A DNA stretch of 64,000 bases from a phage, in the NCBI GenBank assembly GCA_019326865.1, contig GCA_019326865.1_4101.1; one strand, written 5' to 3'. The notes beneath the pieces were generated by a model. It made no database searches. It worked only from the letters and a program-made list of their open reading frames with translations, and was not told the DNA's origin. A program made the translations under genes and the position numbers. Below are positions 7,337 to 43,055 of this stretch, in pieces (the first letter of the stretch is position 1; every line of letters begins with the position of its first letter).

Positions 7337-7342
7337 TTTTAA

Positions 7343-7370
7343 AGCTCGTCTATTGACGGGCTTTTCTTTT
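7343..7370 (+). terminator. intrinsic terminator after tail fibre gene
   Basis: 8-bp stem (one G-U), loop TATT, T-rich run. Confidence 0.55.
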
Positions 7371-7404
7371 GTGTGTATAATACAAAGAAATATAGGAGGA
7401 AATT

Positions 7405-7968
7405 ATGGTCAAATCATTACTACCACCACCAAAACGACATAAAATCAAAGAAATGAAAGAACAACGCACATTAAAGATGTACAACAACTTAGTTAAGTTA
7501 CTTTGCAAAAGCCCATCACTCAAAGAAGTATTCACAACAGATGATGATCGTAACGCACTTATTGAGATGAAGTATATGCTCAGTAAAACGTCGTTTTATA
7601 AATTTGTTAAAGAATACTCATCTGATCCATTTAGTCCTCGTTGGCGAGTTAAACCAAGAGAATATTTCTTTGGTGGTGCATATACTGATACAATTCAAGA
7701 TACTGTCATTGGTGTTGAGTTTGAAATAGATTATGAACCTAATGGTGAAAATGTATACAATGATAAAAAAATGCCGAGTGAAGATGAAATTTATGTTTAT
7801 GCAAGAAAACAGACAACCTTCAGTTCGAGAATTGCTCTTAATAATTTAGATTCATTTATTATTTTCTATACACGTGTAGGTGTAGATAAAATGGTAACTA
7901 AGCTCAATGAATTATCATTACAACAAAAACAGATTAATGCATACAAAGACATTACAGATTTATACTAA
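7405..7968 (+). CDS. hypothetical protein, tandem paralog family member 1
   Basis: 187 aa; AGGAGG RBS; shares a D-[DH]-[DN]-R...E-x-KY-x-LSK motif block with the next two ORFs. Confidence 0.7.
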   Translation: MVKSLLPPPKRHKIKEMKEQRTLKMYNNLVKLLCKSPSLKEVFTTDDDRNALIEMKYMLSKTSFYKFVKEYSSDPFSPRWRVKPREYFFGGAYTDTIQDTVIGVEFEIDYEPNGENVYNDKKMPSEDEIYVYARKQTTFSSRIALNNLDSFIIFYTRVGVDKMVTKLNELSLQQKQINAYKDITDLY

Positions 7969-7974
7969 TGAGGA

Positions 7975-8496
7975 TTGGATATGTTTTTTGGACAGTTAAA
8001 AAAACCTAACAGTACTTTAATTTGGCATGAAATCATCTTTAAAATTATATCTAAAAGCTACTCACTAAAAGATATTATCAAAACAGATCATGATCGACGT
8101 GTTCTGTTAGAAGCAAAATATAAATTGAGCAAACACCCGTTACTTTCGTTAATCATTGATTACGTTAATGATTATGAATCCAGTCGTTGGAAGTGGGAAG
8201 ACGGAGGTTTATTTCGTGGAAAAACATTCTACGGTGCTGAACGATATGTATTCAGTGATACAGCAAATGATGTTAAGTTTGCTATTAGAAACTTTAACTC
8301 CAAAGAAAATGATTATCTTGAAAGTGGAGTTAAGGTGTATATAGATAATAATAGCAATGTACTTACATATGACGAATCACTAATTATGTTACAAATAATG
8401 CGTGGAGTTGAAAGTGTAAGACACAATCTTACTAAGTTGAAAATCCAGCAAAATGATATACATAATAGACAGAAAATTAAGGGTTTATATAAATGA
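7975..8496 (+). CDS. hypothetical protein, tandem paralog family member 2
   Basis: 173 aa; KTDHDRRVLLEAKYKLSK matches the motif in members 1 and 3. Confidence 0.7.
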   Translation: MDMFFGQLKKPNSTLIWHEIIFKIISKSYSLKDIIKTDHDRRVLLEAKYKLSKHPLLSLIIDYVNDYESSRWKWEDGGLFRGKTFYGAERYVFSDTANDVKFAIRNFNSKENDYLESGVKVYIDNNSNVLTYDESLIMLQIMRGVESVRHNLTKLKIQQNDIHNRQKIKGLYK

Positions 8497-9002
8497 TTTC
8501 ATTTTTCAAAAAGAAAGAAAAAGTTGATGAAACTGGATTAGAATCGTTTCTATGGACTCTTATCATTAAAAAAAGTCCATTGATGAAAGAATATGCTATC
8601 AATGATGCTAATAGAAAAACTATCATTGAATACAAATATGAATTATCAAAATGTGATCCAATTGTTTATCACTTTGCGAAGTACTGTTCTAACAATTTAT
8701 CGGATATCACTATTGAACACGAGTCAGTACCAATGAGTTTTCCTTATGGTGATTGGGTAGATACTTTTGATATTTTTGATGGTTCAAATGGTTTCAGTTT
8801 CTTTTACTCGTCAAATAAAGCAAATGTTCGTATTAAAACAGAGATAGGTTGGACACAGCATAGCTCAAATAAAGAAGATTATAATTTACTAGCTGACGTA
8901 TACCGAAGTGTGAAGAATTCAAAGGATATTGATGAAAGAATTAAAAAGCAAAATCGTATTTCTTTATCACTTGAAACATACAAGTCAAAGTATGGTGGTT
9001 AA
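8493..9002 (+). CDS. hypothetical protein, tandem paralog family member 3
   Basis: 169 aa; NDANRKTIIEYKYELSK motif; 4-nt overlap with the preceding gene. Confidence 0.7.
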   Translation: MISFFKKKEKVDETGLESFLWTLIIKKSPLMKEYAINDANRKTIIEYKYELSKCDPIVYHFAKYCSNNLSDITIEHESVPMSFPYGDWVDTFDIFDGSNGFSFFYSSNKANVRIKTEIGWTQHSSNKEDYNLLADVYRSVKNSKDIDERIKKQNRISLSLETYKSKYGG

Positions 9003-9004
9003 CT

Positions 9005-9406
9005 ATGACTACAGTTGATGATATCTATAGTACTATACGAAATATGAGTACAGATAGAAAAGTATTTGGTGATAAAGAAAAATCTAAGTGTTATGGTATT
9101 GATTCTTTTGATATAATTTCGTATGAGTACAACACGAATGGAAATAGTTCACTGAATATCGTCTGCCCTCGTGACCCAGAAAATAATTTTATGTATGTTG
9201 AAATTAATAATGATGGGATGTTTTTTACAAAAGTTTTCAAAGGTGGTATTAATTACGAACCTATTGAATGTATGAATGAAGAAACTTTCTTTCAAGAAGA
9301 TACAATTATCAATTTAGGTTTTAGTTTTGCGGATTATAAAACATTAGAACATGACTTTAATCGTTATTATAACGGTTTCTTAAAGGAGTTAACAATTTAT
9401 CTATGA
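9005..9406 (+). CDS. hypothetical protein
   Basis: 133 aa ORF in a co-directional packed array. Confidence 0.6.
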   Translation: MTTVDDIYSTIRNMSTDRKVFGDKEKSKCYGIDSFDIISYEYNTNGNSSLNIVCPRDPENNFMYVEINNDGMFFTKVFKGGINYEPIECMNEETFFQEDTIINLGFSFADYKTLEHDFNRYYNGFLKELTIYL

Positions 9407-10635
9407 ATAACCAATATGTTGAACAAACAATAGTGAAACACTTGGCTGGGTCACAAGCCTACGGAACCAGTACACCTGAAAGTGATACTGATTATCGTGG
9501 TATTTTTCTTGCTAATAAAGAATTTATTCTTACGCCATTCTATAAGGTTAAAGAAGTAGCTGATAAAAATGAAGAAGATACCAAATTCTATGAGTTAAAT
9601 CAGTATTTAAAATTATACACTGATGCTAACCCTAATATTCTGGAATCACTATGGGTTGAACCAGAACACATTGTAGAAAGTACTGAGATTTATGACTATC
9701 TTCGTTCATTTAACCAAAAACTTCTTAGTTCTAAGATTGCATTTTCATATACTGGGTATGCATACAACCAGCTTAAGCGTATGTCAAATCATCATGGTTG
9801 GATGGATAAAGAGCGTATTGCTGAAAAACGATTAAATGAGATTTTAGAAGAACACCCAGTCGATGAGGTTATTGCATGGATGTATGATACATTCCCACAA
9901 TATCTTGTTGAACGTTTAGATACATCTAACTTACATCCATTTAATGCTAAAAAGATCGATTTTGAAAAATATATGCGTGATACGTCATTGCAGTTAGTTT
10001 CGAAAAATCCATTAAAGCAATATCATTTTGTAAGATTAGTGCATAACTACACTACTGACAAAATTCTAGATCGTGATTTCAATTTATTGAATTTTAATAA
10101 TGGCTATGAACTAATTCATTACGGAGAAAACATTTTTGCGATTATTAAAAATCCGAATGAAAGCACTATCAACGGTGATGGTTCATTGCGTTATTTTTCT
10201 AAAGAGCGTAGTTCTGAAGAGTTGAAAACCCAACCAGAACTAATTGTAAAATTTAACGAAAAAGAATATCAGGAGAATAGTGAGAATAGAAAAAGTTATC
10301 ATAAATGGAAAGAAAATCGTAATGCAAAACGTGCTATTTTAGAATCAAAACACGGTTACGATTGCAAAAGTGCAATGCATACAATTAGACTTTTAAATAG
10401 TGCAGAAGATGCATTACAAAGTGGTATTATTCAAGTCAAACGTCCAGATGCACAAATGTTGATGGATATTCGTAATGGTAAATGGAAGTATGAAGAAGTC
10501 TTAGAATATTTCGATGATAAAGTACAATACATTCGTGATGTTCTATATAAGAAATCAGTACTTCCCAAAAAACCTAACATCAAGTTAGCATCGAAAATTA
10601 TAATTGATATTCGAGAAATGCAATGGTATAAGTAA
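9403..10635 (+). CDS. predicted Pol-beta-superfamily nucleotidyltransferase
   Basis: N-terminal GSQAYGTSTPESDTDYRGIF fits the [GS]-x(9-13)-D-x-[DE] NTase signature; 410 aa. Confidence 0.5.
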   Translation: MNNQYVEQTIVKHLAGSQAYGTSTPESDTDYRGIFLANKEFILTPFYKVKEVADKNEEDTKFYELNQYLKLYTDANPNILESLWVEPEHIVESTEIYDYLRSFNQKLLSSKIAFSYTGYAYNQLKRMSNHHGWMDKERIAEKRLNEILEEHPVDEVIAWMYDTFPQYLVERLDTSNLHPFNAKKIDFEKYMRDTSLQLVSKNPLKQYHFVRLVHNYTTDKILDRDFNLLNFNNGYELIHYGENIFAIIKNPNESTINGDGSLRYFSKERSSEELKTQPELIVKFNEKEYQENSENRKSYHKWKENRNAKRAILESKHGYDCKSAMHTIRLLNSAEDALQSGIIQVKRPDAQMLMDIRNGKWKYEEVLEYFDDKVQYIRDVLYKKSVLPKKPNIKLASKIIIDIREMQWYK

Positions 10636-10697
10636 TATATGGGTGTAATAGTTATAAAAATTCCATTACACACCAAATCACTTCAGTGATTTATAAC

Positions 10698-10725
10698 TTG
10701 ACATTGAAAAATAATTATGTATAAT
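10698..10725 (+). promoter_or_regulatory. sigma70-like promoter (TTGACA, 16-nt spacer, TATAAT)
   Basis: consensus hexamers read directly; followed at 10727-10756 by a hairpin plus T6 run upstream of the ACP-like gene. Confidence 0.5.
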
Positions 10726-10769
10726 TAGAGAACTTCATATGGAATTCTCTTTTTTATAAGGGTGATAAA

Positions 10770-11171
10770 ATGTTAAATGAACGTATTAAAAATGCACTAT
10801 ATGTATTGAACCAAGAAGTTAATTCTATTCATAAAAGTACTGAGCGATATAAAGTATTACATGAAATTAGACAAGAATTGGAATCTATTAATAAGGGAAA
10901 ATGGGTTCTTGAACGCGAACGAACTATTGTTGAAAAAGCAATTGCAAAATTCATCTCGGAACGTTATGGTAAAATTTCAGAGGAAGATGTACTAATGAAC
11001 TTACATCTTTCACAAACGGAAGTGATGGAGAAATTTCATTTTGATTCATTAGACTGGTTAGAAATGATCATGGAATTGGAAGAAGAATTCAATGTAGAAG
11101 TAGATTTATATTATGAAAAACAAGAAACCAAACTATATGAACTAGCAGAACACATTAAACTAATGATGTAA
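10770..11171 (+). CDS. acyl carrier protein-like protein with N-terminal extension
   Basis: FHFDSLDWLEMIMELEEEFNVEVD parallels the ACP phosphopantetheine-site helix (DSLDTVELVMALEEEF). Confidence 0.6.
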   Translation: MLNERIKNALYVLNQEVNSIHKSTERYKVLHEIRQELESINKGKWVLERERTIVEKAIAKFISERYGKISEEDVLMNLHLSQTEVMEKFHFDSLDWLEMIMELEEEFNVEVDLYYEKQETKLYELAEHIKLMM

Positions 11172-11905: not shown

Positions 11906-12517
11906 ATGAACAAATATCATGTTTATTATACAACAAAGTTATCCCTTCTTGATGAATTAAATCACCGAAGTACTAAGATGAAACGTTATACTTTAAATGG
12001 TATTACTTTTCGATATTTCCCACAAAAAGTCCTTACTTTTGTCAAGAATCCAAAATGCGTGGCATGTGGGATTGAAGCCACTGAAGTACGCATTGAACGT
12101 ACATTTAGTTCTGATCCAGTTTATGGTAAACCACATTTAAATGTATATGCGGTATGTGGTCTTTATGAAGTGTTGATGACAGTTGATCACAACCATCTGG
12201 CATCGAAGGGTGGTTGTGATTTAGAGTCAAACTTTAATACTATGTGCTCCAAATGCAATCAACTACGTTCTAATAAAACCGAAACAGTTGATGAGTTTCT
12301 TGAGAAAGTTAAAGATCGTAATCTTCTCCAAGAACATATGAATAAATTCTTTAACGTACAAAAAAAGAAAAATAACATTGACAAGTCGAAACTACTAGAA
12401 GAACGTAGGTTACGTCAAGAATTATGGGAAACAGACCATCTATGGCATGTTCGAGAATTTGGTCGTCATATGAAAGCTTTGAAAAAAGAACAGAAGAAAT
12501 TGAATAAACATGATTGA
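11906..12517 (+). CDS. HNH endonuclease
   Basis: VDHNHLASKGGCDLESNFNTMCSKCNQLRSNK fits the HNH motif (DH...N...C-x-x-C-N). Confidence 0.6.
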   Translation: MNKYHVYYTTKLSLLDELNHRSTKMKRYTLNGITFRYFPQKVLTFVKNPKCVACGIEATEVRIERTFSSDPVYGKPHLNVYAVCGLYEVLMTVDHNHLASKGGCDLESNFNTMCSKCNQLRSNKTETVDEFLEKVKDRNLLQEHMNKFFNVQKKKNNIDKSKLLEERRLRQELWETDHLWHVREFGRHMKALKKEQKKLNKHD

Positions 12518-42130: not shown

Positions 42131-42526
42131 ATGCAATATAATTATCGTGAACTAGTTGAAGCGTTGGACGAAATCACCGGACGAGATGAAGAAGGAAGTT
42201 TTTCCGTTGAAGTTGATTCCGATGTTGTAGCAATTGATGTTCTTAAAGATATTACCAAATGTCTCGTTGATATTGTTGATAAGATTAAATCTGGTGAAGA
42301 TCAAAAAGAAATCGTTGATAAACTACAAAAAGCATGTGACATTTTGTCTGACATTCGATATAATGATGAAAGTACTGAAGTCGATGATGATGAAGTGATG
42401 GAAGCTATTGCTGGATGTTTTGGAACTGAAGGTATGGGTCCAACGATTGACAAAGATGGCGTACAGCACTATAATGAACCAGATGCACCATCTTATGCTG
42501 CACGCCAAGGTTATGTTGGAGACTAA
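42131..42526 (+). CDS. hypothetical acidic protein
   Basis: 131 aa ORF. Confidence 0.55.
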   Translation: MQYNYRELVEALDEITGRDEEGSFSVEVDSDVVAIDVLKDITKCLVDIVDKIKSGEDQKEIVDKLQKACDILSDIRYNDESTEVDDDEVMEAIAGCFGTEGMGPTIDKDGVQHYNEPDAPSYAARQGYVGD

Positions 42527-42924: not shown

Positions 42925-42952
42925 TTGACAAGATAGAATGATGTGATATAAT
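42925..42952 (+). promoter_or_regulatory. sigma70-like promoter P1 (TTGACA, 16 nt, TGaTATAAT)
   Basis: consensus -35 and extended -10; duplicated about 100 bp downstream. Confidence 0.6.
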
Positions 42953-43027
42953 AAGCATCAGACATAAAGTTTTCAAGCGACACAAGATGTGAGTTTGAAA
43001 AAAATAAAAAAAAGTGATTGACAAGTT

Positions 43028-43055
43028 GAAACGATGTGATATAATGTTCACATCA
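43028..43055 (+). promoter_or_regulatory. sigma70-like promoter P2 (TTGACA, 16 nt, TGaTATAAT)
   Basis: near-identical copy of P1; A-tract immediately upstream. Confidence 0.6.

Follow-up and report, generated by a model that had tools for sequence, protein, structure and literature searches.

A phage nucleotidyltransferase assigned to the RlaP family carries an additional middle domain

Introduction

The RlaP proteins (RNA-ligase-associated Pol-beta nucleotidyltransferases; Pfam PF10127) owe their name to Burroughs and Aravind, who derived it from a linkage to RNA ligases. In jumbo phages, RlaP is the most prevalent nucleotide-restoring nucleotidyltransferase (NTase), its distribution mirrors that of RNA ligases, and its predicted task is to put back, ahead of ligation, the nucleotides that RloC and similar nucleases have taken away (Iyer et al. 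2021, PMC7824862). Here we analyse an NTase gene at positions 9403–10635 (+ strand) of a 64,000-nucleotide stretch of phage DNA (contig GCA_019326865.1_4101.1 of GenBank assembly GCA_019326865.1; the whole stretch is referred to as the window). A first-pass annotation, made from the sequence alone, had described the product as a Pol-beta-type NTase of unknown substrate, encoded next to an acyl carrier protein (ACP)-like gene.

The biochemistry of the family has been worked out on two Pseudomonas enzymes, PfRlaP and PaRlaP, by Carruthers, Fatma and Huang in December 2025 (bioRxiv 10.64898/2025.12.29.696909). Both enzymes put one or two NMPs (or dNMPs) on RNA 3'-OH ends, have no activity on DNA or protein, and work better with Mn2+ than with Mg2+. 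They favour the 5' half of a cleaved tRNA over the natural tRNA 3' end and partly restore the aminoacylation of a tRNA that lacks one nucleotide. In addition, the RNAs that they label include those of rRNA, tRNA and fragment size, and they discriminate little among NTPs. The same study describes a crystal structure of PfRlaP.

Results

The NTase and its phage relatives

The gene is an open reading frame (ORF) of 410 amino acids (plus stop) with an ATG start. Its start codon shares an ATGA with the stop of the ORF before it (9005–9406), and 13 nt 5' of the start there is an AAGGAG. The N-terminus of the protein reads MNNQYVEQTIVKHLAGSQAYGTSTPESDTDYRGIF, and the signature region, as quoted earlier, is HLAGSQAYGTSTPESDTDYRGIF. 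This region of the window is most closely related to Escherichia phage UE-S1 (98.8% identity), with ph0011, slurp01 and others at 91–92%; all of these are Asteriusvirus-type jumbo coliphages of ~350 kb. The orthologs in 121Q (gp506, 96% amino-acid identity), ph0011 and slurp01 already carry the label 'nucleotidyltransferase'.

A tblastn search with the NTase found relatives in 1,223 phage records. Full-length relatives are present in Klebsiella K64-1 (73%), Serratia BF (56%), ~145-kb Vequintavirinae-type phages (32–43%) and a Lak phage, while the tblastn similarity to NrdC.11 of T4-like phages is limited to the N-terminal domain (~29% identity). A search of 5.8 billion proteins returned 776 homologs, every one of which (776/776) is flagged PF10127. 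The NTase is an ordinary, already-annotated gene type, and its sole unusual trait is an extra middle domain.

Assignment to the RlaP family

PF10127 matches residues 12–131 of the protein with 58.7 bits, compared with a gathering cutoff of 23 (E 9e-16), and phrog_388 ('nucleotidyltransferase') matches over the full NTase length (E 2.6e-76). Together with the 776 homologs, these matches bear out the earlier reading of 9403–10635 as a gene for a Pol-beta-type NTase.

For the second half of the protein, plasmids were searched with the N-terminal domain, which led to a Deinococcus gobiensis gene. This gene sits in a Hen1–NTase–NTase–Pnkp operon, an order that is the classical bacterial RNA-repair cassette, and both NTases of the operon match PF10127 over their full length (6e-42 for the first, 2e-50 for the other). 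The phage family profile aligned with the first Deinococcus NTase at 99.4% (hhalign, E 2.1e-21). The alignment covers query residues 12–131 and 306–405, including the KHxMHxxRLL and LPxxP motifs, and the helical domain at the C-terminus is homologous to that of canonical RlaP. The Deinococcus protein has nothing opposite query residues ~135–305. Because the N- and C-terminal domains align and the middle does not, the window protein can be described as a canonical two-domain RlaP with an insert of ~170 residues between the domains; its 410 residues exceed the compact two-domain size of ~250–300. Pfam searches with the isolated C-terminal 125 residues and with the insert alone returned nothing significant. 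Judged from these profile comparisons, the window protein is almost certainly a member of the RlaP family.

Other NTase families gave little or no signal. PF10127 was the only Pfam family at E ≤ 1; the PolyA_pol/CCA Pfam models did not match, and phage UPEC06 encodes a separate CCA-adding enzyme besides its NTase homolog. NCBIfam and PADLOC scans of the NTase gave no match, no CD-NTase or cGAS-like enzyme was matched in PADLOC or Pfam, and Foldseek matches to CdnC and CdnE had a probability of ≤0.04. PDB sequence searches, whether started from the protein alone or from the family profile, found no match at E ≤ 10, and the PfRlaP crystal structure was absent from the PDB sequence matches. A Foldseek search against the PDB gave weak generic NTase matches only, with E values of 1e-2 or worse.

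The catalytic residues are invariant

Conservation was assessed in an alignment of 42 homologs reaching down to ~40% identity, in which G16, S17, D28, D30 and D59 are invariant. The first four residues form the signature G16-S17-x10-D28-x-D30 (9448–9492, +), which is also kept in T6 NrdC.11 and in Deinococcus RlaP. An earlier description of this signature as G-S-x(9)-D-x-D picked out a genuine motif; its spacing is x(10), still within the canonical Pol-beta range of 9–13. D59 (9577–9579, +) begins the strand formed by residues 60–64 of the structural model and is the likely third metal-binding carboxylate. A profile comparison with T6 NrdC.11 (hhalign 98%, 274 columns) shows that G-S, D-x-D and D59 are retained there and that E64 of the window protein lies opposite a serine. 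We favour D59 over E64 because it is D59 that is kept.

The window protein thus contains the catalytic set expected of a Pol-beta enzyme, namely G-[GS] and D-x-[DE] and, on a downstream strand, a third carboxylate. With the PF10127 and phrog_388 matches and the 776 homologs, the motif goes far beyond chance. Conservation of the active-site carboxylates had been named by the first-pass annotation as the point on which its assignment turned; with D28, D30 and D59 invariant, the assignment stands. A second invariant block of the same alignment is found near the C-terminus and comprises W302, R306, N307, R310, E314, D320, K322, H326, R329, R347, D349 and R357.

A three-part architecture with a clade-specific insert

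An AlphaFold2 (AF2) model of the whole NTase has a pLDDT of 91.5. The N-terminal Pol-beta NTase domain (residues 1–131; 9403–9795, +) includes the PF10127 match and shows the alternation of strands and helices expected of such a domain, with strands at residues 9–15, 30–35, 51–54 and 60–64 and a helix at residues 16–20. It is followed by the clade-specific middle insert (residues 132–300; 9796–10302, +), which consists of a helical part (residues ~135–205) and a conserved small beta-sheet domain (residues ~205–285). The C-terminal helical, HEPN-like domain occupies residues 301–410 (10303–10632, +), and the model is all-helical over residues 286–409. The label 'minimal nucleotidyltransferase' therefore had to be given up for this protein of three parts: NTase core, middle insert and HEPN-like domain.

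The insert adopts a confident fold when modelled alone (pLDDT 90.8). Its helical sub-insert of ~60 residues (within ~135–205) is found only in the ~410-residue jumbo-phage type and is lacking in members of ~350 residues. When 1.84 billion representative proteins were scanned exhaustively with HMMER, the insert was detected in only 72 clusters. Most full-length matches to it lie at the same internal position in NTase-sized proteins; all long matches scanned with Pfam carry RlaP, the other matches being short fragments or falling outside that scan. The middle domain is not detectably common to NrdC.11 (hhalign 0.4%). It is without a relative among solved structures and appears to be restricted to this phage NTase clade.

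Inteins and exonuclease fusions in homologs

At least eight homolog clusters (P0121, P0123, P0124, P0128, P0129, P0150, P0165 and P0094; 680–763 residues) contain an insertion of ~330 residues exactly between D320 and C/T321. The site (10360–10368) belongs to the conserved D320-C321-K322...H326...R329 motif (10360–10389, +), with D320, K322, H326 and R329 as invariant residues. At its two junctions the insertion has GYD|CY... and ...GN|[CT]KHAMH, that is, Cys1 ... Asn | Cys/Thr+1, within the invariant G-Y-D-[CT]-K-H motif. LAGLIDADG_3 is matched at E ≤ 0.01 in five of the eight clusters, in one of them above the Pfam cutoff. By their sequence features these insertions look like inteins; the NTase gene of the window itself has none. 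As the intein-like insertions sit in the invariant D-x-K motif, this motif is likely to be functionally critical.

Five further homolog clusters (P0162, P0168, P0179, P0176 and P0184; 528–674 residues) extend C-terminally beyond a complete NTase. Pfam, run on P0162 and P0168, identifies this extension as an RNase T/DEDD 3'-5' exonuclease (PF00929, E ~1e-22); P0179, P0176 and P0184 resemble these two in sequence there. Fusion of an NTase to an exonuclease would combine adding with trimming, and thus argues that the acceptor is the 3' end of a polynucleotide, not a protein or a small molecule. Among the loci with such fusions (L015–L017), the fusion gene in L017 is followed immediately downstream by Nmad3 and NADAR genes.

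RNA-repair genes in related genomes

The distance between the NTase gene and the RNA-repair genes is known in two genomes, 121Q (inspected up to 250 kb) and UE-S1. In 121Q, the genes for an Rnl1-type RNA ligase (gp438) and a Pnkp (gp443) lie upstream of the NTase at a distance of ~37 kb, with a tRNA cluster elsewhere; in UE-S1 the Rnl1–Pnkp block is ~39 kb from the NTase. The block was matched in 36 Asteriusvirus-type records, including UE-S1, and the genus therefore has the set known from T4: Pnkp, Rnl1 and an RlaP-type NTase. T4 is the classic tRNA-repair phage, and its NTase homolog is NrdC.11.

More distant relatives carry other tRNA-related genes nearby. In Serratia phage BF, a Thg1 gene lies 3 kb upstream of the NTase homolog (locus L018, 212–982). 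In UPEC06, of which one third of the genome was inspected, a CCA-adding enzyme lies 2 kb from the NTase homolog with a SerRS-like fragment nearby (locus L014, 13935–14513 and 18836–19945); the inspected part also contains a 113-residue 'RNA ligase 1' ORF and no full ligase. These genes, in two unrelated lineages, hint at loose tRNA-maintenance gene clusters. Two further observations concern RCC1-type genes: about 14 consecutive paralogous RCC1-repeat genes occupy 117–131 kb of 121Q (L005, minus strand), and an RCC1/WD40 gene adjoins the NTase homolog in metagenomic contig L011.

A likely transcription unit and the adjacent ACP-like gene

The NTase gene is the last of five tightly packed genes (7405–10635). 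The four small ORFs upstream of it (7405–9406, +) begin with three tandem ORFs (7405–9002, +) of 187, 173 and 169 residues, which are paralogs with 25–32% identity and a common '...D.DR..L.E.KY.LSK' block; the fourth (9005–9406) belongs to phrog_22376. The likely promoter of the unit, judged from its consensus match, is TTGACG-17-TATAAT (11/12; 7353–7381, +), and a terminator-like hairpin is found just 5' of it (7341–7364). A perfect sigma-70 consensus promoter, TTGACA-16-TATAAT (12/12; 10698–10725, +), lies between the NTase gene and the ACP-like gene and marks the boundary of the unit. Perfect TTGACA-N16-17-TATAAT sites occur four times in the window, compared with 0.11 expected by chance, and all are on the + strand: besides the one at 10698–10725, they are found at 42447–42475, 42925–42952 and 43018–43045, these three within 600 bp at ~42.4–43.0 kb. 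Such sites are probably strong (early) promoters for the host RNA polymerase. The NTase itself appears to depend on a host-type (early) promoter for its transcription, as a member of a five-gene unit that ends before the ACP-like gene. A hairpin 3' of the NTase stop is no better than shuffled sequence (z -1.27), and we make no claim of a terminator.

The ACP-like gene (10770–11171, +) is immediately downstream of the NTase, as had been pointed out before. Its PP-binding match (E 4.8e-4) is exactly at the Pfam cutoff (20.8 bits), and the phrog ACP match is at 1.2e-7. The protein has 133 residues with an N-terminal extension of ~70 residues, and the PP-binding match consists of the D-S-L helix at residues 91–113 only; the gene is labelled ACP in phAPEC6, Sharanji and Serratia BF. 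A spacer of just 134 bp (10636–10769 in the window) separates the two genes in the window, UE-S1, ph0011 and slurp01. The interval shows indel polymorphism among members of the genus: in 121Q-type genomes it is ~3.5 kb and contains gp507 and the tail-fibre genes gp508 and gp509 (L002:2534–6104). In Serratia BF it contains four ORFs. In this jumbo-phage group the order NTase...ACP–spanin is therefore an old synteny, in which the intervening genes vary and the promoters are separate. No ACP was found near the NTase homologs in the T4-like, rV5-like, Vibrio jumbo phage and metagenomic lineages examined. Since the ACP-like gene has its own perfect promoter and variable genes intervene, no functional link between the two genes is supported, and we reject a functional NTase–ACP pairing. 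The adjacency noted by the first-pass annotation is real in the window, but no functional meaning can be demonstrated for it.

A small hairpin with a T-run behind it, AGAGAACTTCATATGGAATTCTCTTTTTT (10726–10758, +; -6.7 kcal/mol), lies in the stretch that separates the perfect promoter from the start codon of the ACP-like gene. Being no better than shuffled sequence (z -0.76), it is probably insignificant, and no attenuator is claimed. Farther downstream, an HNH endonuclease gene (11906–12517, +; phrog_23285, E 9e-126) may be a mobile homing endonuclease. The genes around it are small, and relatives label them Rz-like spanin and structural proteins.

Discussion

Proposed role in RNA repair

The substrate of the NTase had been thought impossible to tell from sequence. 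This now looks too pessimistic: the bacterial enzymes of RlaP/PF10127 extend RNA 3'-OH ends by one or two NMPs, and a role in jumbo phages has been predicted (PMC7824862). Among the options the first-pass annotation had offered, an RNA-repair-associated enzyme fits membership in RlaP/PF10127, whereas a generator of nucleotide signals found no match among PADLOC models or CD-NTases.

The biochemistry of the family and the exonuclease fusions suggest that the window enzyme would extend RNA 3'-OH ends by one or two nucleotides in a reaction that needs metal but no template. D28, D30 and D59 would hold two divalent metals (Mn2+ being preferred in the characterised relatives), and the metals would bind the NTP and, on a broken RNA, activate the 3'-OH, after which one or two nucleotides would be added without a template. 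The RNA end would sit in the cleft that the NTase core forms with the HEPN-like C-terminal domain, lined by the conserved residues R306, R310, K322, H326, R329, R347 and R357. Comparative genomics and the literature further point to a role in the repair of host-nuclease-damaged tRNA ahead of ligation by Rnl1. The NTase would rebuild the nucleotides trimmed from cleaved tRNAs by RloC-type host anticodon nucleases, and the phage Pnkp and Rnl1 ligase, encoded elsewhere in the genome, would then reseal a usable tRNA. To this full scenario, in which a phage RlaP extends RNA 3'-OH ends to repair tRNAs before Rnl1 ligation, we assign a probability of roughly 0.6.

Several observations weigh against a dedicated repair enzyme. 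The PF10127 match covers profile positions 23–144 of 249, that is, the NTase half, and it is confined to this half in every phage-clade member tested (T6 NrdC.11, UPEC06 and others); for the window protein we explain this by the ~170-residue insert between the two domains. The insert could also alter the acceptor specificity. The NTase gene lies ~37–40 kb from Rnl1 and Pnkp and forms no operon with them, and no RNA ligase adjoins the NTase homologs in the six other phage lineages examined. The 64-kb window contains no tRNA, RNA ligase or Pnkp gene and no Rfam family, so that the co-occurrence of these genes with the NTase is drawn from its relatives. DEDD exonucleases act on DNA as well as RNA, and the best structural neighbour of the window model in the PDB, Hailong HalB, synthesises DNA oligomers. 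The key RlaP biochemistry comes from a preprint without peer review and from bacterial enzymes, none of them of the phage clade, and T4 NrdC.11 is listed there as a family member of 'unknown function' (bioRxiv 10.64898/2025.12.29.696909). Our survey of the nrdC.11 literature found no functional study.

Alternative explanations

The enzyme might act on RNA 3' ends for another purpose, either in the upkeep of tRNA 3' termini alongside exonucleases and CCA-adding enzymes or in tailing host or phage RNAs to alter their stability. The RNase T-type fusions and the CCA-adding enzyme of UPEC06 suit 3'-terminal turnover no less than loop repair, the phage gene is not operonic with a ligase, and the bacterial RlaPs label rRNA-, tRNA- and fragment-sized RNAs with little NTP specificity. 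However, those same enzymes prefer the 5' half of a cleaved tRNA to the natural 3' end, the family is defined by its association with RNA ligases, and both the Asteriusvirus-type genus and T4 carry Rnl1 and Pnkp. We therefore consider upkeep or tailing rather unlikely. A move of the phage clade to DNA is distinctly unlikely. Such an enzyme would be a terminal transferase putting (d)NMPs on DNA 3' ends, serving replication, recombination or end protection, or would make short DNA oligomers in the manner of HalB. Yet bacterial RlaP does not extend DNA acceptors at all, and a replication-module neighbourhood was seen in one lineage only. The likeness to HalB is limited to the fold (15% identity), with no sequence-profile match to any PDB chain and no PADLOC match.

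The fold likeness to HalB, the suggestion of the earlier reader and the general knowledge that phages manipulate nucleotide immune signals (also a theme of PMC7824862) could all be taken to mean that the enzyme makes or mimics such a signal, be it an oligonucleotide second messenger, cyclic or linear, or a decoy by which a host defence (Hailong, for instance) is kept inactive. The family chemistry, however, is acceptor-dependent RNA extension and not de novo oligomer synthesis, and the exonuclease fusions fit end-processing better; with no match to PADLOC models, CD-NTases included, and no sequence relation to HalB or cGAS-type enzymes, a role in signalling is very improbable. Transfer to a protein or a small molecule, as in AMPylation (DrrA, GlnE, MNT) or metabolite adenylylation (KNTase), is the least probable of the readings considered. 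The corresponding fold matches are generic for an NTase with a helical domain (7–16% identity), and bacterial RlaP does not label proteins. Even the ACP-like protein makes a poor candidate acceptor: its gene has its own perfect promoter, three or four unrelated genes intervene in 121Q and BF, and no ACP accompanies the homologs in the T4-like, rV5-like, Vibrio jumbo phage and metagenomic lineages examined.

The part played by the middle insert within the proposed RNA repair is a more speculative matter. It could be a substrate-recognition or docking module. We regard it as possible, though doubtful, that the middle domain is a specificity module that sets the clade apart from bacterial RlaP, either by docking on a particular broken tRNA and biasing which nucleotide is restored, or by redirecting the enzyme to DNA or to the RNA end of a defence system. 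If the insert is such a module, the clade would be a dedicated phage counter to nucleotide-excising anticodon nucleases of the RloC type, a form of counter-defence that has been proposed previously and never demonstrated.

Significance

If the proposed role is correct, the RlaP-type NTase would be the third part of a phage tRNA-repair kit, next to Pnkp and Rnl1, in T4 and in jumbo coliphages. It would also explain how phages could cope with host nucleases that cut a tRNA and remove a nucleotide, damage that plain religation cannot fix. As the repair idea is already contained in PMC7824862 and in bioRxiv 10.64898/2025.12.29.696909, the window provides a further example and not a new concept. 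New here are the clade-specific, confidently folded middle domain without a known structural relative and the independent 3'-5' exonuclease fusions, which support a polynucleotide 3' end as the substrate. The recurrent inteins, in addition, point to a functional importance of the helical domain's D-x-K motif, and the ACP-like neighbour can be dropped as a candidate partner.

Comparison with known systems

The most remote likenesses concern the fold. The kanamycin, aminoglycoside and lincosamide nucleotidyltransferases and the MNT–HEPN modules share the general plan of the window protein, a Pol-beta NTase with a HEPN-like helical bundle behind it. The resemblance is at fold level only (Foldseek E ≥1e-2, TM ~0.2–0.3), and the acceptors differ, being antibiotics or a toxin protein. 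Hailong HalB (PDB 9dbh) makes oligodeoxyadenylate for its partner channel HalA; no such partner was seen here, although no search was aimed at one. Although it is the closest structural neighbour of the window model in the PDB, membership in the HalB family was ruled out, as there is neither a sequence-profile relation nor a PADLOC match.

Bacterial RlaP is represented by PfRlaP and PaRlaP of Pseudomonas, encoded in rtcB–rlaP–rtcA operons, and by the Deinococcus gobiensis enzymes of the Hen1–RlaP–RlaP–Pnkp operon. It has the same G-S...D-x-D...D set as the window protein and the same predicted chemistry, in which RNA 3'-OH ends gain one or two nucleotides without a template. It lacks the ~170-residue insert between the domains, and it is operonic with RNA-repair genes, whereas in the relatives of the window phage the ligase and Pnkp are ~37–40 kb away. 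NrdC.11 of T4 and T6, an early-region NTase placed in cluster 5 of the PF10127 sequence network (bioRxiv 10.64898/2025.12.29.696909), is homologous in both the NTase and the C-terminal domain across the 274 columns aligned. Like the window NTase, it is a phage gene of genomes that also encode Rnl1 and Pnkp, as does the genus of the window, and both gene regions contain a thymidine kinase and a 'starvation-inducible regulator' gene. NrdC.11 has 336 residues and does not detectably share the middle domain; the two proteins would represent sister clades and not the same clade.

The family that, by its sequence, holds the window protein is phrog_388 of the Vequintavirinae, Alcyoneusvirus, Eneladusvirus, Vibrio jumbo phages and Lak phage. 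Its members have the same three-part build, including the beta-sheet middle domain. They differ in that those of ~350 residues are without the ~60-residue helical sub-insert, and some carry inteins or a C-terminal 3'-5' exonuclease.

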